Shown here: one piece after another, positions 10,366 to 28,172 of the stretch
Layout of the letters: the number at the start of each line of letters is the position of its first letter
Position numbering within the stretch: position 1 is the stretch's first letter
Source: an uncultured Victivallales bacterium
GTDB lineage: Bacteria > Verrucomicrobiota > Lentisphaeria > Victivallales > CAZGYO01
Assembly: GCA_964530455.1 (NCBI GenBank)
Contig: CAZGYO010000001.1
Span: 1 to 33,478 of the forward strand
Direction of reading: 5' to 3'
DNA length: 33,478 bases
Notes under the pieces: generated by a model
What the model was told of the DNA's origin: nothing
The model's input: the letters and a program-made list of their open reading frames with translations, nothing else
The model's database searches: none
Program-made: the position numbers and the translations under genes

Positions 10366-10366
10366 C

Positions 10367-11851
10367 TCATTCGCCACGCCGCCCCTCGGAACGATAAATG
10401 CTGTAGTGTCCCGTGTCCGCGATCAGAACGAATTTTTGCACAGCGAACCTTTCGCGCAGTTTCCGCACAGTGTCTTTATTTTTCGCAACTACATAAAAAG
10501 CGCCTGTTTCCGGGGCGGAGGCTTTTCTGTTGATCGTATCGAAAAGTATCCTGTCCCAGTCAGTTCCCGCGAGTTTCGCATACAGAAGAATCGACGGGCC
10601 ATCGGACATGCGGTCAACAAATATCGTGCTGTCAGCAGGCAGTTCCTTTATTTTTTCCACCGTGCTGAGCGGATCGAAATCGGGATCCAGATAGTAGGGA
10701 TGAAAAAAGTCGTCCTGGCCGAATTGCGGAGTGAGATTATCAGAGATGAATTCCGCGTAAATATGCTGCACGACTCCTGAACCGGCTATAAAAACAGATA
10801 TCAGAATAAATACCGCCGTCCTTGCCCTTGCATCAAGATTTTTCCTGAGACATGCATTGAAACGTCTTATCCCGGGCAGAAGGGTGTATAGAAAAAGCGG
10901 TAGAAGCGGAAAGAAAATCCTCGGGAACGGAGGGGGGGTGCGCAGGAGAAAAAAAGGAAGCGGCAGAAGAAGCAGTATAATAGCTTTTCTCAGCGCGCAG
11001 AAAGATATTCTTCCGACCGTGGCGCCGACGATAAAAAGAAATATCGGCACCGCTCCCAGAACAGCAATCATACCGTAGTAGTGAATACAAGCCGCCTGCC
11101 AACTGCTCCAGCCCTCTTCAAGAGACATCACTTTCAACAGCTTGCTGAAAATGGGGCCGTAGAAAAGTAAAAAAAACAAGGGGGGGATAGCGGCAAGCAG
11201 AAAGCCACGGTTCCTGCGGGCTCTGTCGACGATGTCCCCGGGTGTGAATGCGAGAAGCAGCGCGGCATATATCCCGACAACAGAACTCGGCAACACTGCC
11301 AGCGCGGCAAAAGAGCTGACGCAAAAAGACGCAAGCGATTTTTTCGAAGCGGACTCGCGAAACCTCATGGCCGCCTCCATGGTGAATACAAGAAACAATG
11401 CGCTGCAGATATATCCGCGGACGGCCGTGGAATATATGCTGAACGGAACAGAAACGCTCAGAGCCAGAACCGCGTAAAAAGCAGTTACTGACCCGAATCT
11501 TCTCTTCCAGAAACTGAATGTGAAAAAAACAAGAAGCGCTCCGGCGACAAATGAAAGTAGCCTGAATGGTAATTCATGTATTCCGAACACCGGTGTTAAA
11601 ATCTCCAACCAGACGCGCAACAGCAGCGAGTACCCGATATGGTTGTTTGGGATCGGATAACTGAGATAGGTCTCCCGCAACGTCGGCCGTAGCACGAAAT
11701 TGCTTATCGTCAGGGACTCGTCGAACCAGAACGGGCGGAACAGAAAATCCCCTGCGAAAATAAAGAAAAGCACGAAGAGCAGGCCCAGCGCCGCTTTTTC
11801 CCTGAGACCGCGGCTTGTTCCGGGCACGAATCCCTCGGGAACCTTATTCAT
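10367..11851 (-). CDS. Polytopic membrane protein, GT-C fold (GT39/ArnT-like) glycosyltransferase candidate
   Basis: 494 aa, roughly 10 or more hydrophobic segments, FDE motif in the first loop (RPFWFDESL) and a soluble C-terminal domain of about 130 aa. Overlaps the apgM stop by 4 nt. Confidence 0.5.
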   Translation of the reverse strand: MNKVPEGFVPGTSRGLREKAALGLLFVLFFIFAGDFLFRPFWFDESLTISNFVLRPTLRETYLSYPIPNNHIGYSLLLRVWLEILTPVFGIHELPFRLLSFVAGALLVFFTFSFWKRRFGSVTAFYAVLALSVSVPFSIYSTAVRGYICSALFLVFTMEAAMRFRESASKKSLASFCVSSFAALAVLPSSVVGIYAALLLAFTPGDIVDRARRNRGFLLAAIPPLFFLLFYGPIFSKLLKVMSLEEGWSSWQAACIHYYGMIAVLGAVPIFLFIVGATVGRISFCALRKAIILLLLPLPFFLLRTPPPFPRIFFPLLPLFLYTLLPGIRRFNACLRKNLDARARTAVFILISVFIAGSGVVQHIYAEFISDNLTPQFGQDDFFHPYYLDPDFDPLSTVEKIKELPADSTIFVDRMSDGPSILLYAKLAGTDWDRILFDTINRKASAPETGAFYVVAKNKDTVRKLRERFAVQKFVLIADTGHYSIYRSEGRRGE

Positions 11852-13068
11852 GCGCCATCTTCCAGGTCAAGGATCTTTTTCATAAGCATATCGCCTTTCA
11901 TGCGGCCCAGGCCTCCTTCCGCGGCCTCCGGTTCCGAATAATGCATGACTCTGTCGAACCGGATATGCGGACCGCAGATGGCGACAGGCACGGGCGTGCG
12001 TGTATGCTTACGCTTTTTAACGGGTACCGGATGATCCGGCAACACGGCGAAAGAAACATCATCCATCCCGGACAAAGCCTGCATCACGGGAGCGACAATC
12101 CTGTTCTCAAAATGCGCTATCGCCTGCATTTTCAGTTCCAGATCGCCCATATGCGAACACTCGTCTATGGCTTCAACATGCAGATACACAAAATCGTGGT
12201 TTTGCAACGCCTTAACCGCGGCTTCGGCCTTGGCCTCGAAATCCGTATCGATAAACCCGGTCGCGCCCGGAATGCGAATACACTCCATCTGCGCGCATTT
12301 CGCAATACCGAAAATCACGTCTACCGCGCTTATGACGGCCGCCCTCCTGCCCGCATACTTGTCCGAAAAGGACGGCAGCTCAGGTTTTCCGCCCGGACTC
12401 CATGGCCAAATCCGGTTTGCGGGTGATTTCGAATCCGCGTTAAGAGGATGCTCCGCTAGAAAAACCCCGCTTTTATCCGCTAAGTCTTCCAGAAAGTCCA
12501 CCGTGCAGCGCGCTTCCGCGCTTTCGTCCGCGGGACGGAGCCTAAGGTCCATGATCAATTCCCCCTGCGACGAGTCCGGTTTATGATACAGAAATTTTTC
12601 ACTGAACTCGCTTCCGTGCAGAACAAGCAGGTTCCGATAGCTTACCCCGGCATGAAAGGAAACCTTTTCCGAACCAAATTCGGACTGCAGGGCCTTTATC
12701 AGCGCAATTGATTTCTCCTGCGCGACATGCCCGGCGGAATAATCCTTCAGAACCCCTCCCTCAACAGTCACAAAGTTTATACGCATGGCAATATCCTCTT
12801 CGGATAGTTCGACCCCCATGCTCGCTGCTTCAAGAGGCCCTCTTCCGGGAAAACAGGACGAGACATCATAGCCCAGCACCGACATGTTGGCAACGTCGGA
12901 AGAGGTCGGATATCCCTCAGGAAGTGTCAGGAAAGTGCCGCTTGCGCCTTCCGCGGCAATCCTGTCCATCCACGGAGTATCCACCGCCTGCAGAGGTGTC
13001 CTCCCCCCGAGTTCGGGCAGTGCTTCGTCAGCCATTCCATCGGCCAGAAATAATACGGCTTTGCTCAT
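11848..13068 (-). CDS. apgM: Cofactor-independent phosphoglycerate mutase, archaeal-type (ApgM family)
   Basis: N-terminus KAVLFLADGMADEALPELGGRTPLQAVDTPWMDRIA plus TSSDVANMSVLGYD and the length (406 aa) match the ApgM/metalloenzyme family. Confidence 0.85.
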   Translation of the reverse strand: MSKAVLFLADGMADEALPELGGRTPLQAVDTPWMDRIAAEGASGTFLTLPEGYPTSSDVANMSVLGYDVSSCFPGRGPLEAASMGVELSEEDIAMRINFVTVEGGVLKDYSAGHVAQEKSIALIKALQSEFGSEKVSFHAGVSYRNLLVLHGSEFSEKFLYHKPDSSQGELIMDLRLRPADESAEARCTVDFLEDLADKSGVFLAEHPLNADSKSPANRIWPWSPGGKPELPSFSDKYAGRRAAVISAVDVIFGIAKCAQMECIRIPGATGFIDTDFEAKAEAAVKALQNHDFVYLHVEAIDECSHMGDLELKMQAIAHFENRIVAPVMQALSGMDDVSFAVLPDHPVPVKKRKHTRTPVPVAICGPHIRFDRVMHYSEPEAAEGGLGRMKGDMLMKKILDLEDGA

Positions 13069-13251
13069 TTTATCCTTTACTGTAGCAGATCTATGCTTAA
13101 ATTCTTGTTAACTTAATAATGAAAGACCGATTCTGCAAATGCAGCCGCTCACGAACAAGATGCCGGAGCGCCGTCACACGGCACTACAGCCCGGCGTTCG
13201 GCCCGGTCGCCATACTGTTCGGTAAAACGTGTGCGGAAACAGAAAGAAGAG

Positions 13252-13325
13252 TGGCTGGCCGACAAGGACTCGAACCTTGACTAACAGGGCCAGAACCTGT
13301 CGTGCTACCATTACACCATCGGCCA
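13252..13325 (-). tRNA. tRNA-Gln (anticodon CUG), CCA encoded
   Basis: Hand-folded cloverleaf: acceptor TGGCCGA/TCGGCCA (U1-A72), D arm GTGT-AATGGTA-GCAC, anticodon arm ACAGG-TTCTGGC-CCTGT, variable TAGT, T arm CAAGG-TTCGAGT-CCTTG, discriminator G, CCA. Confidence 0.93.
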
Positions 13326-13356
13326 GAGAGAAGCGTAAAATAACCGTTAATCACGA

Positions 13357-13375
13357 TTAGTCAAGGTTCGAGTCC
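13357..13375 (+). repeat. Perfect 19-bp inverted duplicate of the tRNA-Gln variable-loop/T-arm segment
   Basis: ttagtcaaggttcgagtcc (13357-13375, + strand) is the exact reverse complement of 13266-13284 inside the tRNA gene. Similarity stops at both ends of the 19-mer. Confidence 0.85.
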
Positions 13376-13481
13376 CTTTCTATCTCCTTGGCCCGCATAT
13401 TTCATGAAAAATCGATATTTTAGGGTTAATGTCCTGTTTATTAACAGGTTATATGAATTTTTAAAAATTACAAAATGTAAT

Positions 13482-13712
13482 TTAAAGGAACAGAAGATTT
13501 TTCACCCAGCGCATTCGCATTTCATAGGGATCGCCCTCGCGCAGACCTTCCAGTTCAAACCGCAGATTGACATGTTCACGAAGTTTCAGGAACTGTTCGG
13601 TCCGCTCCTCGACCGGCTTCTTGATAAAGATAAGTTCCGTTTTTTGCTGTCCGGCATTAACCTCCAAATCAAAGAGTCTCAATATACCCCGGCGAAACAT
13701 TTTTCCCAACAC
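13482..13712 (-). CDS. Hypothetical small protein (about 73-76 aa), no family recognised
   Basis: Only ORF with protein-like charged/hydrophobic alternation in the 13.33-13.81 kb gap (FRRGILRLFDLEVNAGQQKTELIFIKKPVEERTEQFLKLREH...). TTG at 13712 or ATG at 13703. Its stop is embedded in an AT hairpin at 13465-13483. Confidence 0.25.
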   Translation of the reverse strand: MLGKMFRRGILRLFDLEVNAGQQKTELIFIKKPVEERTEQFLKLREHVNLRFELEGLREGDPYEMRMRWVKNLLFL

Positions 13713-13740
13713 CGTTCACGCGGAGTCTTCAAATCGGCCA
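13713..13740 (+). repeat. Decayed solo right arm of the MITE/REP-like element
   Basis: cgttcacgcggagtcttcaaatcggcca matches the right-arm consensus ggttcacgcggagttttgaaactggctc at about 21 of 28 positions. No left arm was found. Confidence 0.5.
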
Positions 13741-13811
13741 CAAATTCCGAAAAATAAAATATCAAACGATCGAAGGCCTCTTGCCCCCCTGTTGTACCAC
13801 AGAAAAAACGG

Positions 13812-15056
13812 CTAAACGGAATAAAAGCGCCGGAGCTTTTCCGGAGAGAAGCCAAAAAGATAGGCCGCGATCATAATTTGATTCCGCAGGGTTGTTCTGA
13901 GCAAACCGAGTCGCCGCCAACGCCGAGCTGAAGATGTTGCCGCTTGCGGCAATGTCACAATACGTCCCTGACGGCGCAAGCGTCTGACCAGCTCGAAATC
14001 TTCCATAATCGGCATCTCAGGAAACGGCCCTGTCTTAAAAAAAATATCTCTATTCATAAACAGTCCCTGGTCACCATACGGCATCTGCAATTTCTGCGCA
14101 CGGAGATTTGTCCCCCACTCGATAAGGCGCATGAATAGCTTTGCATAATCTGTGCGGAAGCTGAAAGCTCCGGCAATAACATCGCTACGGATAGCATTTC
14201 TTATCAATTCAGCGTAACCCACGGGAAGCAAGCTATCCGCATGCAGGAAAAGCAGTATCTCGCCATCGGCGACCGAGGCGCCGGCATTCATCTGGAAGGC
14301 TCGCCCGGGCTTCGGCCAGCACAGCAACCGGTCAGCACCATCTCCGGCAATTCCACACGTCCTGTCGGAACTGCCACCATCAACGACAATGCTTTCGACA
14401 TTGAATCCATCCTCAATCCGTCCCAAAGTGGTGGCAAGGCATCCCTCTTCATTGAGTGTGGGAATAATCACAGAAATCCGAGCGGGCAGATCCTCCGGGC
14501 GGTCTATGTCGCCCAGCAACGGCATTTGCGAAATTCGCAGATGCCCGACGGCGCGCATGCTCTGTGCGAGCACCTCTCCCGACCCCCACTCGATATCGGA
14601 AAAAAATTCGGAATGAAACTCCTTCATGCCAAGCAGATAGTAGCCTCCGTCCTTCGCCGGGCCGATAACGCAATCACTGCCGTCCAAAAGCCGAAAAGCC
14701 TCCCGAATATTCAGCCAGTGATTTGCCGGACAATCGCTACCGATAATAACGACACGCCATGCGCCGGCTTTAAAATGCTCCTGAAACGCCCGACCCATCC
14801 GTTCGCCAAGATCGCCACTACCCTGATCGGCATAATCGAGATCATCACCGAGCCAGTCGCGCATCTGCAGTTCCGTTCCCCCCGTATAGCGGATTTCAAC
14901 CGGAAATCCGCTTTTCAAGGCCTGACGCAAAGTATGTTCGGTCATTTTGTGCTGGAATTCAGCCGCGCCTTCGGCGCCGAGTGCGGGAATCAGGCGGGTC
15001 TTCGTCTGCCCGGGAACCGGGAAGCGGGTGAAGATGATAATTCTAGTATCGCTCAC
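13812..15056 (-). CDS. Fusion of a DUF2064 (TIGR04282-type) domain and a GT2 (TIGR04283-type) glycosyltransferase domain
   Basis: The N-terminal half begins IIIFTRFPVPGQTKTRL...GSDCP...AKDGGYYLLG (DUF2064 hallmark). The C-terminal half begins ISVIIPTLNEEG...VDGGSSDRT...LFLHADS (GT2). GTG start at 15056 with ggag 8 nt upstream. Confidence 0.82.
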   Translation of the reverse strand: MSDTRIIIFTRFPVPGQTKTRLIPALGAEGAAEFQHKMTEHTLRQALKSGFPVEIRYTGGTELQMRDWLGDDLDYADQGSGDLGERMGRAFQEHFKAGAWRVVIIGSDCPANHWLNIREAFRLLDGSDCVIGPAKDGGYYLLGMKEFHSEFFSDIEWGSGEVLAQSMRAVGHLRISQMPLLGDIDRPEDLPARISVIIPTLNEEGCLATTLGRIEDGFNVESIVVDGGSSDRTCGIAGDGADRLLCWPKPGRAFQMNAGASVADGEILLFLHADSLLPVGYAELIRNAIRSDVIAGAFSFRTDYAKLFMRLIEWGTNLRAQKLQMPYGDQGLFMNRDIFFKTGPFPEMPIMEDFELVRRLRRQGRIVTLPQAATSSARRWRRLGLLRTTLRNQIMIAAYLFGFSPEKLRRFYSV

Positions 15057-15151
15057 TTGGTCGCTCCATAATCAGGCGCCTGATGTTTTGCCCCGTGCAG
15101 CGGCATAAAGTCCAGCATCCGTCGGCTGACGGACTGGTCGCATGGTTTGAT

Positions 15152-15322
15152 CAATCATCTCTGATTCCTACTTTTTTCAATTCGGACTCGATAAAGCCGT
15201 TCTGTAAAACCGCCTTCGCTTTCAAATCCAGGTCAAGACGTTCGACCTGACGGTCGAGGAGTGAGCAGGCAACCGGCTAACAGCACAAATGCGGCGTTGG
15301 CGGAAAATTCAAATGACTGAAC
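15152..15322 (-). pseudogene. Possible 3' remnant of a type I R-M specificity subunit (hsdS) with an in-frame TAG
   Basis: Hand translation directly after the RhuM stop gives FSHLNFPPTPHLCC*PVACSLLDRQVERLDLDLKAKAVLQNGFIESELKKVGIRDD*. This loosely follows the HsdS conserved-region pattern (LPPL..EQ..I...LD...[IV]..L....K....Q..F.E.L). Weak, from memory only. Confidence 0.3.
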
Positions 15323-15324
15323 CT

Positions 15325-16407
15325 TCATTCGGTCTCCTCTTCAGGATATTGAAGTGCATTGCGTTCCTTCAGCATCCGGTCGAAGTCACTCTCGAAAAGC
15401 CGATCCTGAACAATGCGGTACTTCTCAAATTCGCTTTCGGCGTGTGCTTTGGCGATTTCGGCCGTTACTCTTCCTGCATCCTGAAGGATTTCCCTATCCC
15501 AAAGCTTGAGAAATCCGCTCAGGCGCTGTTCCCAGTCCTCCATAGTCATGGGAATCTTCCGCATGGCCTGCATTTCCGCCATGTCCAGATAGGCCGATAC
15601 AATTCGTTGCATCTGCCCAAGCTCAAACTCAGAGAGGTAATTCTTGGCGATGGTCACATCATATTTATGGATTTTGCCTTTTGGAGCTTCATCCCAACTG
15701 GTCAACCCCATGTTTTCTTTTCTATGATCCGCACGAGCCACAATGACTTCTGCCGCACTATTGCCGTGGATGGCATAGTGCATCTTGTTTTGAACCGCGG
15801 CAAAGAAGCGTTTGGTAGCAGTGGCAGATGGGTCATAGTCCAGAGCCGTGGCATAGATGTCCGTGATTTTCTGATAGAACTTGCGCTCGGAAAGGCGAAT
15901 CTCCCGGATTTTTTCCAATTGACGTTCAAAGAACTCGTCCGTCAGATTGCCACCGTGCTTTAGTCGCTCCACATCCATGGTCCAGCCTTGAATCGTATAG
16001 TCCTTGACGATCTGATTCGCCCATTTGCGGAACTGCACCGCACGTTCGTTTTCGATCTTAAAGCCTACGGCTATAATGGCCTGCAGGTTGTAGTGCTTTG
16101 TGTTGTAGTGCTTGCCGTCGGCGGCAGTTATTCGAAAACTTCGAATAACTGAATCTTCCTCCAACTCACTGTCGGAGAAGACCTTCTTAAGGTGGTAGTT
16201 GATGGTGTGCGTTTCCACATCGTAGAGCACCCCCATCATCTTCTGAGTCAGCCAGATATTTTCGTCCTCGTAGCGCATTTCCACGCTGGTTTGTGATCCG
16301 CCACCTGCCGCAACAAACGTCAGGTATTCGGCCGCCGAGGAGCGAATGAGAGACATCTCATTTTCCCCGTCCTTCCGTCGTTCTCTGTTTCTATCGTTTT
16401 TCATCAT
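15325..16407 (-). CDS. RhuM-family (virulence protein RhuM / COG3943-like) protein
   Basis: Characteristic N-terminal segment VEMRYEDENIWLTQKMMGVLYDV...INYHLKKVF...YNLQAIIAVGFKIENERAVQFRKWANQIVKDYTIQGW. 360 aa. The start could be the internal ATG at 16356. Confidence 0.85.
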   Translation of the reverse strand: MMKNDRNRERRKDGENEMSLIRSSAAEYLTFVAAGGGSQTSVEMRYEDENIWLTQKMMGVLYDVETHTINYHLKKVFSDSELEEDSVIRSFRITAADGKHYNTKHYNLQAIIAVGFKIENERAVQFRKWANQIVKDYTIQGWTMDVERLKHGGNLTDEFFERQLEKIREIRLSERKFYQKITDIYATALDYDPSATATKRFFAAVQNKMHYAIHGNSAAEVIVARADHRKENMGLTSWDEAPKGKIHKYDVTIAKNYLSEFELGQMQRIVSAYLDMAEMQAMRKIPMTMEDWEQRLSGFLKLWDREILQDAGRVTAEIAKAHAESEFEKYRIVQDRLFESDFDRMLKERNALQYPEEETE

Positions 16408-16523
16408 CCAGTTCCATCAGCTTTTGTTTGCGGTCGCAGTTCAGTTTATACTTCTTCATGTTCATTCGTGATTTCCCTCGAGCCATTCGTTGAGTACCCA
16501 TCGTTTGTCTAATCGTTCAGTCA

Positions 16524-17969
16524 TCAGTCCAGCACCTCCCAGTGGCCGCCTTTGCGTGGGCCGACATGGCGCAGCTTGCCTTCCTTCGACAGCTTTGAAA
16601 CGGACATTTCCACGGCACGCACCGTCCGGTCGACGGCACGGGCAACTTCCTTCAGCGTCATCTCCGGATTCCTCCGCAACAGGCCGATGATTTCTACCGA
16701 AGTTTTCCCCGACGCATCCTGCTTTTCTACCGAAGTTTCTACCGAAGTTTCTACCGAAGTTTTCTCCGACGTTTTCTCCCCGAGCTCGCCAGCTTGGGGG
16801 ATGCTGATTATCATACGGAAGACATCCCCCTCGACAAGTTGCGGATCGGTACCGCCGTATTTCTTGCCGTATTTCATCATGTTGCGCATGCCGGAGCCGA
16901 GTTCGTCGGCCCGGTCGATTTCCCGGAAAAAGGCACCGATCACCGGGTTTTTGGGATAGGGAGCGAAGGTGTCGGGATCAAGTGCGCCAAAGCCATGAGG
17001 CCGGTTGGCATTGTCGGTTGTCACCTTCCCGTGTTCAATGACAAGCCGGGCGGGAACGCCGCTGGCATATTCCCGATGGATTATCAGATTGGATGCCACT
17101 TCCCGGAAGATAGCATCCCGCAGGCTTCGGCGCTCATCGCCTTCCAGGTAGAACGGATCGGGGAGATGCTTCCGGATAAAGGCCATGATCCGGTTGTAAG
17201 TGTCAATCAGGTTGGTGCGCACCAGGTCACGGTCATCGTAGCGGTCCACATTCACCTTGCGCAAGATCAGATCCGTCCTGTGGGCCGGACAGACCTGTAG
17301 GATCTGGGAATCAGTACCCAGCAGCATGACTCCGGCCAGCGTGATGCCGAGGCTGCGGTTTTCCGGATGCGGCTGGTAGAGCTGGGCGCTTTTTACCAGC
17401 GCTTCATCGTCCATGCCGACCCACGGATGACCCGGGTGATTGATGCGCACATGGTTTCGGCAGCGTTCAATCAGGTCGGCCCGAAGATTAGCGGGCTGGA
17501 TATGCACATAAACCGTGTTCTCGCTGTAGGTTGCTTGCTTGCGCTGATAGAGGCGGGCAACCTGCACGGTATTGTCGGTGATGTCCAAGTCCCCGTCCTC
17601 GTTGCGGTCGTAGATGCGCCCGTTGCAGCGATGTACCTGCGAGCTTTCCGGGACATAGATATGCAGGAGTGTTTTTCCTTCTAACACGACTTCATCCACT
17701 GAGAGGTAGGCGGGAGGCTGCAGCTTTTCCGGATTGTTGATGGCCGTTACGAAATCCTTCTTGAGTTGGCCTGCGATCTCGGTGGCGATGCCGGACACTT
17801 TGCCCGAGTCCTCAACGCCCAGAAGTATCGTACCGCCATGCCGGTTGAGAAAGGCGCACACTGTTTCATATACAGATTTCGGCAATTGACCGCGGCACGC
17901 TTTGAACTCGGTCGAGATTCCCTCGCCGTCCGCGATCAGCGTTCTTAATTTGTGTTTATTCGTGTTCAT
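16524..17969 (-). CDS. Schlafen-like AlbA_2 domain + HATPase_c_4 + C-terminal winged-helix protein (COG2865-type, often mislabelled RecG-like helicase)
   Basis: N-terminus EGISTEFKAC...FLNRHGGTILLGVEDSGKV (AlbA_2). Middle NLIIHREYASG...ELGSGMRNMMKY (HATPase_c_4-like). C-terminus IIGLLRRNPEMTLKEVARAV...LSKEGKLRHVGPRKGGHWEV (wHTH). Confidence 0.85.
   Translation of the reverse strand: MNTNKHKLRTLIADGEGISTEFKACRGQLPKSVYETVCAFLNRHGGTILLGVEDSGKVSGIATEIAGQLKKDFVTAINNPEKLQPPAYLSVDEVVLEGKTLLHIYVPESSQVHRCNGRIYDRNEDGDLDITDNTVQVARLYQRKQATYSENTVYVHIQPANLRADLIERCRNHVRINHPGHPWVGMDDEALVKSAQLYQPHPENRSLGITLAGVMLLGTDSQILQVCPAHRTDLILRKVNVDRYDDRDLVRTNLIDTYNRIMAFIRKHLPDPFYLEGDERRSLRDAIFREVASNLIIHREYASGVPARLVIEHGKVTTDNANRPHGFGALDPDTFAPYPKNPVIGAFFREIDRADELGSGMRNMMKYGKKYGGTDPQLVEGDVFRMIISIPQAGELGEKTSEKTSVETSVETSVEKQDASGKTSVEIIGLLRRNPEMTLKEVARAVDRTVRAVEMSVSKLSKEGKLRHVGPRKGGHWEVLD
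16725..16779. repeat. In-frame 12-nt tandem repeat (ttctaccgaagt x3 perfect plus 2 degenerate) in the AlbA_2 protein linker
   Basis: Perfect units at 16725-16736, 16737-16748 and 16749-16760, degenerate units to about 16779, and an extra isolated unit at 16692-16703. Encodes EKTSEKTSVETSVETSVE. Confidence 0.9.
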
Positions 17970-17978
17970 TCGCGGTTC

Positions 17979-18113
17979 CTATCTTTTCAACGCTTCGCGG
18001 ATGGTGCGGACGACGTCGACGCTGTCGAGGGTTTCGATGTGATTGCGCACGGGATGATTCGGGTCGTACAGCCGATCGAACTCGCGCTGGATGTATTGGC
18101 GTCCGGGTGACAT
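17979..18113 (-). CDS. Hypothetical 44-aa ORF coupled to the upstream YhcG gene
   Basis: The ATG at 18113 lies 1 nt after the YhcG-1 TGA (18115-18117), and the ORF ends 9 nt before the AlbA_2 ATG. Sequence MSPGRQYIQREFDRLYDPNHPVRNHIETLDSVDVVRTIREALKR. No family recognised. Confidence 0.3.
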   Translation of the reverse strand: MSPGRQYIQREFDRLYDPNHPVRNHIETLDSVDVVRTIREALKR

Positions 18114-18114
18114 G

Positions 18115-19158
18115 TCAGTCTTCCTCCCCGCTTTCGAGCATTTTCCGTTCAGCGAGTCGTTCGCGTACTTCAATGAGAGCGTTATGCAGTTTTTCCTCAA
18201 GAAGTTTCTTGGGCGGCAGGTCGGTCCAATATTCGGCGACCATGATGTTGTCTTTCCGCATATTGAGCAGTTCCACCTGTTCGGTGCCGGCTTCCGCGCA
18301 CAGGATCAGTCCGATGGGGGCTTCTTCGCCATCCTGCCGCTCGTATTTGTTGAGCCAGTTGAGATAGAGTTCCATCTGTCCTTTGAAGGCTGCTTTGAAA
18401 CGATCGATTTTTAGGTCGACCGCCACCAGCCGTTTGAGTTTGCGGTGAAAGAAGAGCAGGTCGAGATAAAAATCCTCACCATCAATAATCATACGCTTTT
18501 GGCGTTCCACGAAGGCAAAGCCCTTGCCCAGCTCCAGTATAAAAAGCTCCAGTTCCTTTAGCAGGGCACTTTCCAGTTCGTTTTCCAGATAGCCGTCTTT
18601 CAGACCCAGAAAATCGAGAAAATAGGGATCCTTAAAGTTGCCGCCGAGGTGTTCCGCATCCGCAAGAGCCAGTTTGGTATCGGCTATCTCCGATCGTTCA
18701 AACGCTTTGCGCTCGATTTGATGCCTCAACTCACGTTTGCTCCAACGAGATTCACTGGCTGTGCGGGCATAAAAGAGTCGGGCTTCGTCCGATTTCAGGG
18801 GAATCAACGCCAGAAAATGTGACCAACTCAATTGTCGTGCCAGCGGAACGACAATCTGGACATCCGGAAAACACTCCGCAAACTGCATCATGCGCCGTAG
18901 GTTTTTCGCCTCAAAACTTTTGCCATAGAGCACGACCAATTCATTGGCCAGCGACACGACAACCTGTTTGCCGTATTCCGCCCGTTCGCCGTGAAGCACC
19001 TCTTGATTGATTCGCTTGCCCACATGCCAATAGGTGATGGTTACCGCACTGTTGACTGCTGCAACGGCTTGACTGCGTCCCTGCTCAATCAGCGATTTCA
19101 GATCTCGCAGCAGGTTCTTTTGCGGCATTGCGATTTTGGGCGAGTTCATTTTACTCAT
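18115..19158 (-). CDS. YhcG/DUF1016 PD-(D/E)xK nuclease-family protein, paralog 1
   Basis: DUF1016 N-terminal region (AVNSAVTITYWHVGKRI...AEYGKQVV) and a nuclease core (FYLDLLFFHRKLKRLVAVDLKIDRFKAAFKGQMELYLNWL) with D...D-L-K intact. Confidence 0.85.
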   Translation of the reverse strand: MSKMNSPKIAMPQKNLLRDLKSLIEQGRSQAVAAVNSAVTITYWHVGKRINQEVLHGERAEYGKQVVVSLANELVVLYGKSFEAKNLRRMMQFAECFPDVQIVVPLARQLSWSHFLALIPLKSDEARLFYARTASESRWSKRELRHQIERKAFERSEIADTKLALADAEHLGGNFKDPYFLDFLGLKDGYLENELESALLKELELFILELGKGFAFVERQKRMIIDGEDFYLDLLFFHRKLKRLVAVDLKIDRFKAAFKGQMELYLNWLNKYERQDGEEAPIGLILCAEAGTEQVELLNMRKDNIMVAEYWTDLPPKKLLEEKLHNALIEVRERLAERKMLESGEED

Positions 19159-20408
19159 TCCTTACCTCTAATCCGCATACGCTCTTCAAGAGCGGCTTCG
19201 ATAAGGCGGCGTTCACGTTCGATTTCGCGCCGGAGCTGTTCTTCGCTGGGGAGGTTGGGCAGGTATTTGGAGGCGAAGATTTGTTTGCGGTCGTTGAGCA
19301 CGGAGTAGCGAGCGACGGTATCGCATTTTTCGGCGCAGAGAATCAGCCCGATGGTGGGATTGTCGTCGGGGGCGGTGAAGAGACCGTCAAACATGCGGAC
19401 ATAGCCATCCATCTGGCCGACATCACCATGGGTGAGTTTTTCGATTTTCAGGTCGATCAAAAGGTAAAACTTCAGTTTGCAATGGTAGAAAACCAGATCA
19501 ATAAAGCGGTCTTCTTCGTCGACGCGAATATGCTTCTGCCGTGCGACAAAAGCGAAACCGGTGCCCAACTCCAGTAGGAAATGCTGTAGGTGGGTGATGA
19601 TCGCCTGCTCGACATCGGTTTCACGCACATCGGCAAAATTTGGATAGCCGAGAAATTCGAGCACGTAGGGGTTTTTGAGAACTTCGTCAGGAGCGGCTGG
19701 CGTTTTCTGGAGCTGTCGCCCTTCGGCGATCATTTTGTCTGGCTGCTGCGCGTGCAGGGAGCGTTCGTAATATTGGGTGTGTACCTGCCGCTCCAGCGTG
19801 CGCTTGCACCATCCGCCTTCAATGGCTTCGCGTTCATAAAAGTCGCGGGCCAGTTCGTTATCTACACGCATCAAGACGCGGTAGTGTGACCAGGTGAGCT
19901 TCGGGGAAAAGCCCAATTCGTCACCCGTTGGATGATGCTTTTTCAAATCCCACCCCGCTGGGGAGAGCATTTCATTATCCTCAGATTGGCTACCCGCAGA
20001 GAAGCTTTTGTGTAATTTCAAAAGGTCGCCCGACGGGCGACTTTTTCCATTGCGCTGAGATTGGTCGCCAGTTGGGCGACCAATCTCTCTGAACCGATCT
20101 GCATAGACCAGATAGAATGTCCTGAAATACTTTAAACTGGTTATTGAAAATCCTTTACCGTACTTCTCACTCAACCGCGTCGATAAATCCGCAATGACCT
20201 GCTTTCCATATTCCGCCCGATCTTCTCCTCCCTGCAGCTCCTCGACGATTTCACGACCGATAAGCCAGTAGGCCATGACCATATTGCTGTTGACGGCACG
20301 GACGACATTACCGCGCGCCTGCTCAAGAATGGAGACGACACGATCAAAAAGAGCATGATCCTCAATCCTTTGCGGCAGCATGCCGTCATGTGAGGTTTTG
20401 TTTCCCAT
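19155..20408 (-). CDS. YhcG/DUF1016 PD-(D/E)xK nuclease-family protein, paralog 2 (with an insertion of about 65 aa)
   Basis: Same architecture (AVNSNMVMAYWLIGREI...AEYGKQVI; FIDLVFYHCKLKFYLLIDLKIEKLTHGDVGQMDGYV). The ATGA overlap at 19155-19158 couples it to paralog 1. ATG at 20408 (TTG at 20411 in the ORF track) shares one nt with the ORF6N-fragment TGA. Confidence 0.85.
   Translation of the reverse strand: MGNKTSHDGMLPQRIEDHALFDRVVSILEQARGNVVRAVNSNMVMAYWLIGREIVEELQGGEDRAEYGKQVIADLSTRLSEKYGKGFSITSLKYFRTFYLVYADRFREIGRPTGDQSQRNGKSRPSGDLLKLHKSFSAGSQSEDNEMLSPAGWDLKKHHPTGDELGFSPKLTWSHYRVLMRVDNELARDFYEREAIEGGWCKRTLERQVHTQYYERSLHAQQPDKMIAEGRQLQKTPAAPDEVLKNPYVLEFLGYPNFADVRETDVEQAIITHLQHFLLELGTGFAFVARQKHIRVDEEDRFIDLVFYHCKLKFYLLIDLKIEKLTHGDVGQMDGYVRMFDGLFTAPDDNPTIGLILCAEKCDTVARYSVLNDRKQIFASKYLPNLPSEEQLRREIERERRLIEAALEERMRIRGKE
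20020..20087. repeat. Two GC-rich perfect hairpins sharing the core GGTCGCC-N5-GGCGAC inside the YhcG-2 coding sequence
   Basis: Hairpin 1, 20020-20046: aaaag-gtcgccc-gac-gggcgac-ttttt. Hairpin 2, 20057-20087: gagattggtcgcc-agttg-ggcgaccaatctc (13-bp perfect stem). The cores are 39 nt apart and in frame. Confidence 0.85.
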
Positions 20409-20734
20409 CAAATATCCTCCACGGATAACGTACCGAGAATGAGGGTTTTCTTTGCCCTACGGATGAGATCGGCAACAAAACGGTAAGCGTCATAAACCTG
20501 TCCATTAAAAAAAATGCCTTGCTTCGCTGGCTCTCCTGCCTCCAATGCCTGAAATACTTTTTCAAAGTTTTGTCCGGTTTCGGACTCAAAAGCTATTTGT
20601 CGTCGCTCCACCGAACCCAACCGGGCAAAAATATTGGCGTTATGCTGAATGAATTTTCTCATCTCAACGAAGGCACGCATTATTTGTGAATGATTCCGGC
20701 GGTCGCTGTTTGGCTCTGTCAGTTTATTCTCCAT
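20408..20734 (-). pseudogene. Fragment (middle portion) of an ORF6N-domain-family protein, truncated at both ends
   Basis: MRAFVEMRKFIQHNANIFARL...FEKVFQALE...KQGIFFNGQVYDAYRFVADLIRRAKKTLIL matches, from memory, the region downstream of the ORF6N/KilA-N-like domain in proteins of about 330 aa. The N-terminal domain and the C-terminal ~150 aa (expected to continue ...IDNY...) are absent. Confidence 0.5.
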
Positions 20735-20959
20735 GCCTTATATCCTAAAATCTACTGGCCCTGGTTCCTTTTATGTACATATTCAATGAACCACGACGGG
20801 GGCGGGGCTGAGACACTCGAAGACTGATTGACCCCGATCGAACGGGGTTTGCTGAATATGTACCATTTTATCAATCGCCAAAAACATAACATCTGATATG
20901 ACTTTTGCAAGAGGTACGGGAAGAGCTTTCCGGAACGCTAATGGTTAGTATACCGGACA

Positions 20960-22486
20960 CTATCGCTGTATTTTCAACCACCACTTCAGGAGTTTGGCGA
21001 GAGTCGGTGTAAGCCGGGTTTTCTTGTATAAACCGGCTACTCTCTTTATGGCTTCGGCCTGCGTCGGATAAGGATGAATGACGTTCCCCATTTTTGCCAG
21101 TCCGGTTCCCGTTACCATTGCTGTGGTGATTTCGCTGATCATTTCTCCGGCATGTGCGGAGACAATTGTCGCGCCGAGAATTTTATCCGAGCCCTTTTTT
21201 ACCATTACCTTGACAAAACCATTGCCTTCGCCGTCAGCCAATGCCCTGTCGTTTTCCGACATATCAAATTTGAAAAATTCGACATCCAGCCCTTTTTCGT
21301 CAGCTTCTTGTTTATACATGCCTACGTGAGCGATTTCAGGGTCGGTATATGTGCACCACGACATCACGAGTGAACTGAGTTTTTTGCGTCCTTTGAACAA
21401 CGCATTCTGGATTACGATCTGTGCCGCGGCATCGGCGGCATGGGTGAATTTCCACGCCATACAGCAATCTCCGGCTGCATAAATCCGCTTGTTACTCGTG
21501 CGAAGATTGTCGTTCACTATAACTCCCTTGCGTTGGTCATAATCGACTCCGGCAGTATCCAGTCCGATGTTCTCAACGTTCGGAACGCGTCCGGCGCCGA
21601 TCAGTATTTCATCTGCCTCGATAGCGTGATTTTCTCCATTGACTTCGATGAATACTTTTTTTCTTCCCGACCCGATACATTCAACTTTCAACGTCTTTGC
21701 GTGTAAAAACACACGAATGCCTTCCTTCTGAAAAACATCCGCCAGTATATTTGATGCCTCCGCATCCTCATGGGGTAGAAAACGTCTTTTTTGAATAATT
21801 GTGACTTCGGATCCCAGGCGGTGGAAAGCCTGAGCTAATTCGCAGCCGATAGGCCCGCCACCGACAACCACCAGGTGTTCCGGCAGACTGGTCAGGTTAA
21901 ATACTGTTTCATTGGTCAGGAAACCCGCATCTTCAAGTCCCGGAATATCAGGTTTAAGTGCCCGTGCGCCCGTAGCGATTACAGCTTTGCGGAAACGCAA
22001 AGTTTTCCCGTCAACTTCGACCGTGTTACGGCTCTTGAAAACACCCTTTCCGAGAAAAACATCCACTCCGAGTTCAGAATAGCGCTTGACTGAGTCATTC
22101 TTGCTGATTTCCGCCCTTATGCGCCTTAATCGCTCCATCACTTTCGGAAAATCTTCTTTGCGAACTTCGCAGCCGCTCAGCCCGAAATCGGCCGCATTAC
22201 GCATTTCCGCCGCGAGCCGTGCGGGACGAATCAGGCTTTTTGATGGCACGCAGCCGACGTTTAGGCAGTCTCCTCCCATCAGATTCTCTTCGATCAGGGC
22301 GACTTTTCCCCCAAGTGAAGCGGTGGCTATAGCGGAAATCAATCCTGCGGTACCGGCACCCACAGCCACCATGTTGTACATCGGTTCAGGATCAGGATTC
22401 CGCCAATTTTCCGGATGCACATTTTCCAGAAGTTCACGGTTGTACTTATCATCAGGACTTAATTCAAGTTGCCGTTCACTCATCAT
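20960..22486 (-). CDS. MerA-like class I pyridine nucleotide-disulfide oxidoreductase (FAD)
   Basis: GAGTAGL FAD fold, redox-active GGDCLNVGCVPSK, second Rossmann VVVGGGPIGCE, and the C-terminal HPYPTQAE dimerisation/active-site His-Glu. No NmerA domain or C-terminal CC pair, so not a bona fide mercuric reductase. Confidence 0.85.
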   Translation of the reverse strand: MMSERQLELSPDDKYNRELLENVHPENWRNPDPEPMYNMVAVGAGTAGLISAIATASLGGKVALIEENLMGGDCLNVGCVPSKSLIRPARLAAEMRNAADFGLSGCEVRKEDFPKVMERLRRIRAEISKNDSVKRYSELGVDVFLGKGVFKSRNTVEVDGKTLRFRKAVIATGARALKPDIPGLEDAGFLTNETVFNLTSLPEHLVVVGGGPIGCELAQAFHRLGSEVTIIQKRRFLPHEDAEASNILADVFQKEGIRVFLHAKTLKVECIGSGRKKVFIEVNGENHAIEADEILIGAGRVPNVENIGLDTAGVDYDQRKGVIVNDNLRTSNKRIYAAGDCCMAWKFTHAADAAAQIVIQNALFKGRKKLSSLVMSWCTYTDPEIAHVGMYKQEADEKGLDVEFFKFDMSENDRALADGEGNGFVKVMVKKGSDKILGATIVSAHAGEMISEITTAMVTGTGLAKMGNVIHPYPTQAEAIKRVAGLYKKTRLTPTLAKLLKWWLKIQR

Positions 22487-23178: not shown

Positions 23179-23984
23179 TTATAAGATTTATTACGGGAAA
23201 AAGGAGTCGTCATCATACCCCTTAGGGTCTGGAAACGGGGAAGACTATATTTGCCAAGCCCGATTTCAATGGCGGCGAGATCCGTGCGGCGGCGGAAACT
23301 GTTGAAGATACGGTCCCAGACGGAAAGCAAAGAAGTGTAGTTTGAATCGGTTTCGATCTGTATGCGCGAATGATGGACTTTATGCATAGCCGGCGTGACC
23401 AGAAATATACGCAGCCAGCGGTCGAATCGTTCAGGAAGTGCAATGTTAGCATGATGAAAATCAACCACAAAGCCCATAAGCCAGCCGTAAAGCAGCAACT
23501 CCCATAGATATAGTCCCAGCAGAAAAACAAGGGGAATTGGCAATATCGAGGAAAATATAATTTCACCGGGATGGAAGCGGCGGGCACTGGAAACATCCAT
23601 CCAGGGGTCGGAATGGTGCATCCGATGGAATCGCCACAGGAAAAGAATGCGATGGTTGGCCCGATGCCACCAGTATGTCCAGATATCAAGCAGCATAATG
23701 GCCAGAAAGGTATGCAGCCAAATCGGTAAGGCGAAGCGATGAAGCAGACCGAATTTTATCTCAACCGACCTGCCTGCCGCCAGTTTCCACAGTATCAGGA
23801 AACAGATTCCGATCAGCGCGGCATTCAACAGAGCAAAACCAATATTACGTGCCAGGTGCAGGTAGCGCCGCCCCGTTTCCCCCCTGAAAAAAGGGAAGGG
23901 CTGAATGCTCTCCCATCCCAGAAACAGCAAAAAAGCAAGCAGAGCCGCTATATTCCACACTGTTGTTTCATTGAACCAAATCAT
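23175..23984 (-). CDS. Fatty-acid hydroxylase / sterol desaturase superfamily membrane protein
   Basis: Three His boxes (HRANH, HRMHH, HKVHH) in a polytopic protein. I place the start at ATG 23984 (MIWFNETT...) because the longer ORF-track N-terminus overlaps dsbD. Confidence 0.8.
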   Translation of the reverse strand: MIWFNETTVWNIAALLAFLLFLGWESIQPFPFFRGETGRRYLHLARNIGFALLNAALIGICFLILWKLAAGRSVEIKFGLLHRFALPIWLHTFLAIMLLDIWTYWWHRANHRILFLWRFHRMHHSDPWMDVSSARRFHPGEIIFSSILPIPLVFLLGLYLWELLLYGWLMGFVVDFHHANIALPERFDRWLRIFLVTPAMHKVHHSRIQIETDSNYTSLLSVWDRIFNSFRRRTDLAAIEIGLGKYSLPRFQTLRGMMTTPFSRNKSYK

Positions 23985-25860
23985 TCGTCGGCGACCTCTT
24001 CTTTTTTGTGTTCTGCCCGGACAGTATTTTTGGCATGATGGACAGGAATTCATTCGGTGGAAGAAAGCCAGTGACTCGGGAATTTTGCAGTTCATCGCCA
24101 TTGGCATCAAGAAAGACAAGCGTCGGAACCCCTTGCACACCGAAGCGTTCCACTACCGCACGGTTTTCCGCATTGTCATCATGAGTCATATCCACTTTCA
24201 AACGAACATACCCGCCCAGTGCAGCCATAACATCCGGATGGCTGAACGTCTCCCTTTCAAGTTCATGACAAGGAATACACCAGTCGGCATAGAAGTCCAG
24301 GACGACCGGCTTCCTGTTCGTTCGAGCAATATCCAGTAATTCGGGTTGGTATGACTGCCATTCCAATTGTGTGCGCGGCATGGCGACAATCTGCCATACC
24401 CCGTACAAAATAGCAGCTATCCCCAGCGCATATTTTAAATTGCGGAATCCGCGTTTTCCATTGCCGGTTTTTTCAATGAATCCGAGATAAACTCCGCCTA
24501 TAATTGCCGTGATAAGCGGAATCCATTGGACGAACCCCGGCATGATTGCAAGTGCCAGATAAAATAAACCGACTCCAAGCAATATGACTCCGAATACCTT
24601 TTTGACCCATATCATCCAGGCACCCGATTTAGGTAATTTCTGCAGCAGTCCGGAAAATGTTCCCAGTACCAGATATGGCGCTCCCAATCCCATTGAAAGT
24701 ACGAAAAACGCACCAAATCCGAACCATGGGTTACCCCGTGCTCCAACGAGAGCGAGTAAAGCTATAATGGGGGGACCAATGCAGGGGGCGGCGAATATGC
24801 CGACCAGAAGCCCGGATAAGTATACTCCGGCAAAACCGGTCGTCGTTGTGCCGCCGAGGCGGTTCAGCAGTCTGGATGGGGGACGAAATTCGTAAAGACC
24901 AAACATACTCAATGCCATGGCTCCCAATAAAAGTCCGATTGCGACCAGTACCCAGGTGTTTTGCATTACCCCCCCGAACATACCGCCGGTCAAGGCAGCC
25001 AGCGTTCCAAGGATACTGTACATAGTCCCGATCCCGAGTACATAAATCAGAGCCTTTAGGAAAACACCAACGGTTCGTGACTTATTCTGCCCTCCGAAAA
25101 TCGAGACCGTAACTGATAACATGGGATAGACACATGGAGTCAGATTCAATGCAAGCCCTGTCAGAAACATTGCCAGCAGGGTAAGAAACAAACTGCTACC
25201 ACCGAAAACCTGGTTCAGTTCATCTACTGATGATACTGCAGCGTTTTCGATTGGGGAAAGAGTACGAAACCACTTTTCATTGACGGCAGTGACAGAGGTT
25301 CCTTTTGTAACCACCTCGACAGGGATATTTACCGCCAGAGTTGACGGTGCCAGACAAACCTGATCATCGCAGGCCTGAACCGTCAACTCGCCTTTTATTA
25401 CATATTGACCGGGTATAAGATCCGCCGCGGTGGAAATGGTGAACAGGATCGGCGTTTCGCCGTCATACACTGCCAGAGTATCGCCTGCGAATTCAATTTG
25501 CTTTGCAGACGGGTGGTCAATCCTGCCTATTTCAATTCCTGATTGCGGTTTCAGACTCAGAATAGTACCAACGAGATAATCAAACGAAGGCTGCGCCGCC
25601 TGCATGTGCCAACCCGGCTGAATATCAAGAACTACTGCCGCCTGGAACGAAGAACCCGCCGGCACCCGGTCAACAGAAAGAAAATAACGGACATTCATAC
25701 GCGACGCGCTGTCAGTTAACACCGCAGTTTCCTGGGCTACGACAGGCGTCAACAGAATGATACTCAGTAGCGTCAATACCAAGAAGTTCCAAACACCTTT
25801 TTCAGTAGTCTTTTTCACAGTTTTTTTAAACATAGATCCCTTCCTGTTTTCCGCAGCCAT
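23968..25860 (-). CDS. dsbD: Thiol:disulfide interchange protein DsbD
   Basis: Signal peptide, N-terminal DsbD-alpha-like domain, central DsbD/CcdA transmembrane core (NLTPCVYP ... FAAPCIGP) and C-terminal thioredoxin domain with WCIPCH. Confidence 0.9.
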   Translation of the reverse strand: MAAENRKGSMFKKTVKKTTEKGVWNFLVLTLLSIILLTPVVAQETAVLTDSASRMNVRYFLSVDRVPAGSSFQAAVVLDIQPGWHMQAAQPSFDYLVGTILSLKPQSGIEIGRIDHPSAKQIEFAGDTLAVYDGETPILFTISTAADLIPGQYVIKGELTVQACDDQVCLAPSTLAVNIPVEVVTKGTSVTAVNEKWFRTLSPIENAAVSSVDELNQVFGGSSLFLTLLAMFLTGLALNLTPCVYPMLSVTVSIFGGQNKSRTVGVFLKALIYVLGIGTMYSILGTLAALTGGMFGGVMQNTWVLVAIGLLLGAMALSMFGLYEFRPPSRLLNRLGGTTTTGFAGVYLSGLLVGIFAAPCIGPPIIALLALVGARGNPWFGFGAFFVLSMGLGAPYLVLGTFSGLLQKLPKSGAWMIWVKKVFGVILLGVGLFYLALAIMPGFVQWIPLITAIIGGVYLGFIEKTGNGKRGFRNLKYALGIAAILYGVWQIVAMPRTQLEWQSYQPELLDIARTNRKPVVLDFYADWCIPCHELERETFSHPDVMAALGGYVRLKVDMTHDDNAENRAVVERFGVQGVPTLVFLDANGDELQNSRVTGFLPPNEFLSIMPKILSGQNTKKKRSPTNDLVQ

Positions 25861-28020: not shown

Positions 28021-28172
28021 GAGGTTTTCAGCTTCCTTTATCTCTTATAATCCGCCAATTACCTAATAGTATATCGAATTAGTGCATAATTAAAGGAGTA
28101 AAATGGAAATAAATGATTTTTATTTATTTTCAAAATAATCTTAATGTCTGTCTGCGGTCGATAAAAACGAAA

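Follow-up and report, generated by a model that had tools for sequence, protein, structure and literature searches.

When genes of restriction-associated families stand together without a restriction enzyme, are they the remainder of one operon that still acts as a unit, or a set of genes that act alone? This question is raised by a 5.9-kb block on the minus strand of a 33,478-nt contig (CAZGYO010000001.1) from an uncultured Victivallales bacterium. The whole contig stretch was analyzed and is called the window here. The block (window 15057-20959) consists of four intact candidate defense genes, encoding two YhcG nucleases, a prokaryotic Schlafen protein and a RhuM protein, together with two broken remnants. 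An initial annotation, made from the sequence alone, had described an orphaned type I restriction-modification operon whose products might work together as one defense module. We consider it probable that the region is instead a mosaic stack of four independent single-gene phage-defense candidates, with no restriction-modification partner on the contig. We established the gene content of the block, its junctions, its intact motifs, its insertion site and the identity of both scars within it. We also showed that its gene order is not conserved elsewhere and that RhuM and Schlafen homologues, copies without restriction neighbors among them, are under purifying selection.

Gene content and insertion site of the block

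All six open reading frames (ORFs) of the initial annotation were found co-directional on the minus strand, with the coordinates and junctions that it had reported (Table 1). In the direction of transcription, they are a 108-amino-acid (aa) ORF, YhcG#1, YhcG#2, a 44-aa ORF, the Schlafen gene and, after a 116-nt spacer, RhuM, which is followed by a spacer of 268 nt. The TGA of the 108-aa ORF and the ATG of YhcG#1 have one base in common (GATATTTGATGGG, TGATG at 20408), and YhcG#1 and YhcG#2 overlap by ATGA at 19155-19158 (GGAATGAGT). A single nucleotide (18114) separates the stop of YhcG#2 at 18115 from the ATG of the 44-aa ORF at 18113 (GACTGACATG), and the ATG of the Schlafen gene (17969) follows the 44-aa ORF, whose stop is at 17979, after 9 nt. 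Not all junctions are tight, as there are 116 nt between the Schlafen gene and RhuM (16408-16523). We also recovered the 225 nt reported between the first ORF and the housekeeping operon.

Families were assigned with Pfam, scanning 28 ORFs (one per locus across the window, the largest in each case), and with PADLOC; E-values ranged from 1e-19 to 1e-146 across the confirmed families. The YhcG/DUF1016, AlbA_2 and RhuM assignments of the initial annotation were all supported by Pfam, and those of YhcG and RhuM by PADLOC as well. Both Pfam domains (DUF1016_N and YhcG_C) scored well above cut-off in both YhcG proteins, and the predicted catalytic residues, located by motif reading, are present (D304, D319 and K321 in YhcG#1; E218, D233, D248 and K250 in YhcG#2). 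The initial proposal of full-length genes with intact catalytic residues thus held for the nucleases, and it extends to a motif in the Schlafen protein described below. Because the two YhcG proteins are 29% identical, they are not the product of a recent duplication. The RhuM protein matched PF13310 with 347 bits over profile positions 1-249 of 252, and PDC-S05 over positions 5-336 of 342; its relatives, 83-89% identical, fall into more than 100 clusters from many phyla. No sequence relatives of YhcG#2 or RhuM were found among solved structures.

Compared with the family profiles, the DUF1016_N domain of YhcG#1 contains an inserted segment of ~60 aa (window 19915-20100). This segment encodes three RP(T/S)GD-like peptide repeats and contains two near-perfect DNA palindromes (20057-20087 and 20024-20081), and it may be an in-frame palindromic element.

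Of the AlbA_2/HATPase/winged-helix architecture proposed initially for the Schlafen protein, the first element was confirmed (SLFN_AlbA_2, PF04326, 5.6e-19, 69.2 bits versus a cut-off of 25.3 bits); the other two were borderline and below their cut-offs (HATPase_c_4, 22.7 bits, cut-off 26; HTH_24, 21.8 bits, cut-off 21.9). The protein has at least 2411 homologues at E <= 1e-20, and homologues carry PF13749 in precomputed annotation. The motif E16-GIST-E21-F-K23 (Ex4ExK) is invariant across 26 homologues, and a homologue profile weakly matches Schlafen 8, 5, 12, 11 and 14 in the PDB over residues 16-77. The gene is not modeled by PADLOC 2.0, which returned only weak matches of prokaryotic Argonaute (pAgo) type. 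An AlphaFold2 model was poor (predicted local distance difference test, pLDDT, 63; predicted template modeling score, pTM, 0.30) and was not used.

Ex4(E/D)xK defines the catalytic site of Schlafen tRNases, and fusions to a histidine kinase, or to a histidine kinase and a helix-turn-helix (HTH) domain, are the commonest prokaryotic Schlafen architectures (PMC13056530). The window protein shares the N-terminal Schlafen domain with Ex4(E/D)xK with the HisKinase-HTH pSlfn class (Perez Taboada et al., Nat Microbiol 2026, PMC13056530), and its putative kinase-like and winged-helix parts would follow in the same order, although its C-terminal HTH is of the HTH_24 type and that of most close homologues is of the Fic-like_C type. 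The initial annotation had cast this protein as a regulator. Because its own catalytic Ex4ExK motif is intact, and in keeping with the effector class just cited, it is more likely to act as an effector that carries its own sensing or regulatory part than to regulate the neighboring nucleases.

A repetitive linker, EKTSEKTSVETSVETSVEK, joins the putative kinase-like and winged-helix parts and is encoded by 12-nt tandem repeats (TTTCTACCGAAG-like) at 16690-16771. Because the homologue in a type I locus (L005, described below) has another repetitive linker, PVKTPVKTPVQTPVKTP, at the same place, this appears to be a variable, slippage-prone segment.

The first scar of the block lies at its upstream edge. 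The 108-aa ORF, initially called an ORF6N fragment, is an internal fragment of an ORF6N-family protein, as indicated by its match to PDC-S05 (9.6e-27), but it has no Pfam match, that of the ORF6N domain (PF10543) included. Only its residues 16-100 align, to positions 116-200 of the 306 in the PDC-S05 profile, and it is 46% identical to residues ~152-242 of the 342-aa ORF6N protein of L005. It has lost the ORF6N domain at its N-terminus and ~100 residues at its C-terminus. Similarity ends at ...KKTLIL, and the final 8 codons run into the start of YhcG#1.

The base composition of the genes differs from one to the next. G+C at third codon positions (GC3) is 0.46 in the ORF6N-family fragment, unlike its neighbors, 0.59 and 0.58 in YhcG#1 and YhcG#2, 0.76 in the 44-aa ORF, 0.69 in the Schlafen gene and 0.60 in RhuM. 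DNA homology between the window and related loci ends at gene boundaries. Together with the divergence of the two YhcG proteins, these features argue for a mosaic origin of the block.

To characterize the insertion site, we fetched 80 genome loci via the flanking oxidoreductase and mapped the flank proteins of the window onto them. A DedA-like gene lies 5' of the oxidoreductase in most of these loci. In 25 of the 80, the oxidoreductase is followed on the same strand by the DUF2064-glycosyltransferase gene, and 14 of these 25 (from Sumerlaeota, Desulfovibrionaceae, Chitinophagales, Planctomycetota and others) have no more than about 60 nt between the two genes. There were no RhuM, YhcG or Schlafen genes at this site in any of the 80 loci, and no ancestral restriction system. 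The longer gaps at the site in Kiritimatiellales relatives hold a membrane protein gene and another glycosyltransferase gene, with no defense genes. Homology of the oxidoreductase to other genomes, in both DNA and protein, stops at 20947-20960, and the closest flank matches are ~70-73% identical, in metagenome-assembled genomes (MAGs) of Sumerlaeota, Verrucomicrobiota, Kiritimatiellales and Desulfovibrionaceae. Because the flanking genes abut elsewhere and the cassette genes never occur at this site in the relatives, the 5.9-kb block is, judged from these comparisons, a lineage-specific, same-orientation insertion between two normally abutting genes. The interruption of a conserved operon by the block had escaped the initial annotation.

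We found neither a target-site duplication nor flanking repeats around the block. The sole tRNA gene (Gln) is 1.7 kb from it, and no other Rfam family was found. No minus-strand terminator-like site was scored outside coding sequence between the two flanking genes; this agrees with read-through transcription but is no proof of it. The ~480 nt (window 13326-13811) that separate the DUF2064-glycosyltransferase stop codon from the tRNA-Gln(CTG) gene (13252-13325, minus strand) are of lower G+C and contain no convincing gene, only a 117-aa plus-strand ORF.

There were no restriction genes on the contig. In agreement with the initial annotation, neither hsdR (ResIII/HSDR_N) nor hsdM (N6_Mtase/HsdM_N) was found in the 28 Pfam-scanned ORFs, and hsdS (Methylase_S) was missing as well. 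A putative hsdS tail had been suggested after RhuM, in the frame at 15151-15276. It was rejected: it had no Pfam match at E <= 10, 5.8 billion proteins contained no homologue that shared words with it, blastx against six HsdS probes and any gene of 84 related loci (see below) found nothing, and neither did blastn against the fetched loci. There was also no core gene of bacteriophage exclusion (BREX), of the defense island system associated with restriction-modification (DISARM) or of type I systems on the contig, and the block is not embedded between such genes.

The three spacers were examined in the same way. The upstream spacer (20735-20959) gave no blastx match to the HsdS probes or to genes of the 84 related loci, and no sigma-70-like promoter was scored in it. 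It contains an inverted repeat at 20775-20863 (21-nt arms, 81% complementary, 47-nt loop), which we rejected as an exceptional structure, since the spacer folds no better than its shuffles (z = -1.07). The 116-nt spacer (16408-16523) had no blastx similarity. A 29-nt stretch in it (16445-16473) resembles the region around the Schlafen start, with 76% identity, which is too weak for interpretation; on the basis of this single repeat, and with no support from blastx, the 24-codon ORF after the Schlafen gene is a weak candidate for the stub of a second Schlafen gene. The downstream spacer (15057-15324) had no blastn match to any of the fetched loci.

Table 1. Features of the block and its flanking genes in the window, listed in the direction of transcription
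Feature	Coordinates	Strand	Evidence and remarks
Flank: pyridine-nucleotide disulfide oxidoreductase	20960..22486	-	Pfam Pyr_redox_2 1.9e-61, Pyr_redox_dim 8.2e-31; upstream gene of interrupted operon
Upstream spacer, 225 nt	20735..20959	-	Between oxidoreductase stop and 108-aa ORF; part of inserted DNA
Internal fragment of ORF6N-family protein, 108 aa	20408..20734	-	PADLOC PDC-S05 PDLC04869 9.6e-27; pseudogene remnant
YhcG/DUF1016 PD-(D/E)xK nuclease #1, 417 aa from ATG	19155..20408	-	DUF1016_N 2.7e-39 (two stretches), YhcG_C 7.8e-53; PDC-S02 5.5e-133
YhcG/DUF1016 PD-(D/E)xK nuclease #2, 347 aa	18115..19158	-	DUF1016_N 6.5e-45, YhcG_C 3.8e-46; PDC-S02 2.1e-133
3' relic of type IIG-class (Eco57I/MmeI-like) restriction-modification methyltransferase, open 44-aa ORF	17979..18113	-	Residues 7-44 match conserved C-terminal tail
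Prokaryotic Schlafen protein, 481 aa	16524..17969	-	N-terminal Schlafen/AlbA_2, putative GHKL/histidine-kinase-like middle, repetitive linker, putative C-terminal winged helix
Internal spacer, 116 nt	16408..16523	-	Two tiny ORFs, 20 and 24 codons; sequence read directly
RhuM family protein, full length, 360 aa	15325..16407	-	Pfam PF13310 6.5e-104; PADLOC PDC-S05 1.5e-146
Downstream spacer, 268 nt	15057..15324	-	31-codon ORF overlapping RhuM stop (ATGA); 41-codon frame 15151-15276
Flank: DUF2064 + glycosyltransferase-2 fusion	13812..15056	-	Pfam DUF2064 1.4e-32, Glycos_transf_2 1.3e-11; downstream gene of interrupted operon

A methyltransferase tail in front of the Schlafen gene

The second scar is the 44-aa ORF, which the initial annotation had left as an anonymous small gene. 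A phmmer search against 1.84 billion representatives gave 98 matches at E <= 1e-3 (best 1.1e-13, 76-89% identity), all of them at the extreme C-terminus of their proteins. The long matches are proteins of 981-1270 aa with Eco57I, MmeI_Mtase, N6_Mtase and TaqI_C domains, classed by PADLOC as REase_MTase_IIG. Because the matches are all C-terminal in Eco57I/MmeI-like proteins, the ORF is identified as the last 38 codons of such a methyltransferase gene. All highly conserved tail positions are kept in it. There was no similarity to the methyltransferase family upstream of the 38-residue tail, and methyltransferase and target-recognition domains are missing. By homology, then, the ORF is a relic and not a member of a type IIG-class enzyme, and it is the sole restriction relic in the block. 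Its GC3 resembles that of the adjacent Schlafen gene and not that of YhcG#2.

We examined the contexts in which this tail occurs elsewhere. In one locus (L171), a helicase gene, a methyltransferase gene (1201 aa) and a Schlafen-HATPase gene follow one another. Further on in the same locus (3876-6420), after the full methyltransferase-Schlafen pair, a P-loop/zeta-like gene begins within a 58-aa tail relic, as if each passenger had brought its own copy of the tail. On four other contigs (L172-L175), genes for a PLD-SNF2 helicase and a methyltransferase (1153 aa) are followed by RhuM with an ATGA overlap, and in L167 an AAA ATPase gene comes directly after the methyltransferase gene. From the first and second of these contexts, it follows that both the Schlafen and the RhuM families of the window are seen directly behind this methyltransferase family elsewhere. 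The window relic is directly 5' of the Schlafen gene, as is the full-length gene in L171; unlike in the helicase-methyltransferase loci, ~3.5 kb of the methyltransferase gene and the whole helicase gene are missing, and YhcG#2 ends 1 nt before the relic.

A second relic was found directly in front of a Schlafen gene. In L170 (6001-7535), a 46-aa tail relic overlaps the start of a Schlafen-HATPase-HTH gene whose product is 23% identical to the Schlafen protein of the window, amid housekeeping neighbors and with no restriction genes. The pairing of relic and Schlafen gene without restriction genes thus recurs independently. The window and L170 relics differ by 20 synonymous and 5 non-synonymous codon differences. 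Other short ORFs that bear the tail have differing 5' breakpoints and unrelated N-terminal residues. These variable breakpoints fit remnants of deletion or recombination better than a fixed small gene, and they make it less likely that the 44-aa ORF represents a conserved small gene in its own right. The tail peptide had no match in the PLSDB plasmids. The sample is small: relics were seen in three contexts and the full-length gene in three distinct ones, of which one is represented by four contigs. The relic sample is also biased, as only relics that are still open are called as proteins.

It is conceivable, though we think it doubtful, that the tail is more than a scar and serves as a homology anchor for passenger swapping or as a functional handle. 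As an anchor, it would possibly be the site at which Schlafen, RhuM, zeta-like kinase and AAA ATPase genes are swapped and stacked; tail plus passenger would then be a portable cassette, which would account for arrays such as that of L171. The handle version is more speculative: a downstream effector would monitor its restriction partner through the tail peptide, and stand-alone relics such as the 44-aa ORF would restrain the Schlafen nuclease. Recurring tail relics before passenger genes are a thread of some novelty. They could mark a site of passenger exchange; a function of their own is less likely.

Related loci and the rest of the contig

We collected 80 metagenomic loci around close Schlafen homologues (57-77% identity) and four more from protein look-ups. 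These were annotated with probes, clustering and PADLOC, and the 63 loci with at least two flanking genes were counted. BREX genes were present in 30 of the 63, typically in the order BrxC, Schlafen, then PglX or PglXI, and were five times commoner than type I genes, which were present in 6. YhcG was found in 3 loci, RhuM/ORF6N-family genes in 5, and both in only 2. There was no sign of a conserved multi-gene module among these 63 loci, and the genes seem to behave as independently assorting passengers, at odds with the single cooperating module proposed initially. A BREX survey (NAR 2026, PMC12839542) reports an association of the Schlafen-histidine-kinase-HTH architecture with BREX and related loci in at least 1017 taxa. 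Close homologues of the window protein likewise sit between brxC and pglX/pglXI, whereas the window itself is without a BREX gene.

One type I locus (L005) comes close to the window. Its gene order is hsdM-YhcG-x-Schlafen-x-ORF6N-hsdS, with the same three passenger families, orientation and overlapping junctions; its Schlafen protein is 63% identical to that of the window, and its YhcG, embedded after hsdM, 48% identical to YhcG#2. The window differs in having no hsdM, hsdS or hsdR gene or relic of one, a second YhcG gene, and RhuM instead of a complete ORF6N gene. In L005, the region 3' of the type I hsdS gene (8000-15134) contains NYN, pentapeptide-repeat, TIR, DarT and Macro domain genes and then a type I HsdR-like gene; it is a dense defense island with an embedded DarT-Macro (DarTG-like) pair.

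The association of these families with restriction-type loci, stated in the initial annotation, is well founded. The PDC-S02 and PDC-S05 families were defined by "guilt by embedding", from genes located within BREX, DISARM and type I restriction-modification loci (Payne et al., bioRxiv 10.1101/2024.01.29.577857). The YhcG proteins and RhuM of the window match them at ~1e-133 to 1e-146, and the 108-aa fragment at 1e-26; the families are single-gene candidates that also occur outside restriction loci. In contrast to the definition of these families, the window genes are not embedded in BREX, DISARM or type I loci, and three PDC genes are stacked with a Schlafen gene. A stand-alone RhuM-domain PDC-S05 gene from a cold-seep genome cut plating of T7 and T5 ~1000-fold, and of T4 ~10-fold, in E. 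coli (10.1101/2024.09.26.614923). Like the RhuM of the window, it encodes a RhuM-domain protein without a restriction partner. The functions of these families, described initially as experimentally unclear, are thus no longer wholly so.

RhuM and Schlafen genes without restriction neighbors were compared between loci. Copies of RhuM that are 86% and 83% identical to that of the window are located amid housekeeping genes in L168 and L169, and the ratio of non-synonymous to synonymous substitution rates (dN/dS) among the three copies, none of which has restriction neighbors, is ~0.06. For the Schlafen gene, dN/dS versus homologues is 0.11-0.17, and between the type I-embedded copy of L005 and a copy without restriction neighbors (L004) it is 0.15, at an unsaturated synonymous divergence (dS) of 0.6. 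These values are rough, but they indicate purifying selection at the family level on RhuM and Schlafen copies without restriction neighbors, and not the lack of selection that the initial annotation had considered for orphaned copies.

Outside the block, the contig carries housekeeping genes, including recJ, rnc, tatD, ABC transporters, apgM, dsbD and a pst-phoU operon. The phoU-pstBACS operon (window 28000-33478) has a G+C of 0.40-0.46 and a GC3 of 0.37-0.45, versus a G+C of ~0.50-0.55 in the rest of the contig, and the change occurs near 28.0 kb, directly after a gene with a G+C of 0.61; horizontal acquisition and a chimeric MAG contig are both possible. A 494-aa minus-strand ORF (10367-11851) between a DUF4340 gene and apgM matched no Pfam family at E <= 1e-5. 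For the fatty-acid hydroxylase and DsbD genes, the longest ORFs overlap by 173 nt (23968-24140), and the true start of the hydroxylase is probably further downstream than the listed GTG.

Origin and predicted action of the block

How might the block have arisen, and what might it do? The stack would have been assembled by gene-sized recombination and deletion from pools of restriction- or BREX-associated genes, and then inserted, in the same orientation, between the oxidoreductase and DUF2064-glycosyltransferase genes of a widely conserved operon. Two scars of this history would remain, the ORF6N-family fragment at the upstream edge and the last 38 methyltransferase codons directly before the Schlafen gene. 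From the literature on these families, we infer that the genes may be co-transcribed, possibly by read-through from the host operon, and that each protein would act alone. The Schlafen protein would be a phage-triggered tRNA nuclease with a sensing or regulating C-terminal half, RhuM a toxin-type effector able to protect alone, and the YhcG proteins would cut nucleic acid.

Several points weigh against this reading. Of the 63 related loci, 27 had no recognized partner, and the counts are approximate, being derived from crude ORF calls and probe-based annotation of mostly short, partly redundant metagenomic contigs. dS was saturated (1.5-2.2) for most pairs, and the estimates of selection compare lineages with one another. 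With only 33.5 kb of the genome on this contig, a restriction or BREX partner elsewhere is possible. The tight stop-start overlaps would also agree with a co-evolved operon. The defense function of the block and of its genes is a prediction from families and motifs, and published tests have been mixed: the representative of PDC-S02 (YhcG) was outside the four positives in one study (10.1101/2024.09.26.614923), and in another 2 of 7 tested Schlafen systems protected, the histidine-kinase types not among them (PMC13056530).

Three other explanations were weighed. An integrated defense or abortive-infection system left over from a type I operon, in which the Schlafen-like ATPase/HTH protein would sense nucleic acid or ATP and control the YhcG nucleases and RhuM, would agree with the co-directional, overlapping or abutting genes, with the intactness of all four large genes, and with the presence of YhcG, Schlafen and ORF6N-family genes together between hsdM and hsdS in L005. 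We regard it as very improbable. The genes do not travel together and the two YhcG proteins are 29% identical, and therefore a single system of sensor plus nucleases is unlikely; RhuM and Schlafen genes occur alone elsewhere, composition varies from gene to gene, and the Schlafen protein has a catalytic motif of its own. Nor is a type I origin itself supported, given the lack of any hsd relic in the searches described above, a sole relic of type IIG class, and the predominance of BREX over type I genes around the Schlafen homologues.

The block could also be a decaying and no longer useful leftover of a larger defense island, with genes that are intact only because decay is recent. The two truncated genes, the three spacers of 116-268 nt, the missing restriction partner and the absence of an outstanding promoter or terminator signal would all fit, but we find this unlikely, as none of the four ORFs of 347-481 aa is truncated relative to its family profile or has lost a catalytic residue, the scars coincide exactly with gene boundaries, and strong purifying selection acts on the families in other loci that lack restriction neighbors. 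In addition, expression of the downstream housekeeping gene needs transcription through the block or promoters within it. It is improbable, too, that the genes are backup effectors, held inactive by a restriction or BREX system elsewhere in the genome and released when a phage inhibits that system, with the tail peptide as a possible control handle. The precedent is the PrrC-EcoprrI paradigm, in which an effector is held inactive by a restriction system and released upon its inhibition by phage (10.1101/2024.01.29.577857). The positions of Schlafen and RhuM genes directly after tail-bearing methyltransferase genes, the still-open relic with all key positions conserved, and the second relic-Schlafen pair, with its excess of synonymous differences, are consistent with such a role. 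No partner is present on the contig, however, the relics vary in their 5' breakpoints and N-terminal residues as random deletion remnants would, and the recovery of still-open relics is subject to the sampling bias described above.

Independent single-gene candidates thus remain the reading that we prefer for this locus. The families, their habit of embedding and their occurrence outside restriction loci are already described in the literature, reportedly in defense-island surveys of the Makarova type. The main value of the analysis is a correction, as the locus appears to be neither an orphaned type I operon nor a new multi-gene system. It would be a further example of single-gene candidates, first noticed within restriction and BREX loci, that live outside them. 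The commonest Schlafen class and YhcG were not among the positives of the published tests (PMC13056530; 10.1101/2024.09.26.614923), and a compact, restriction-free stack of two YhcG genes, a Schlafen gene of putative histidine-kinase type and RhuM may offer a clean test bed for these abundant and poorly characterized families. The methyltransferase tail relic before the Schlafen gene, which recurs in at least one other genome, hints at an exchange of passengers next to restriction genes.

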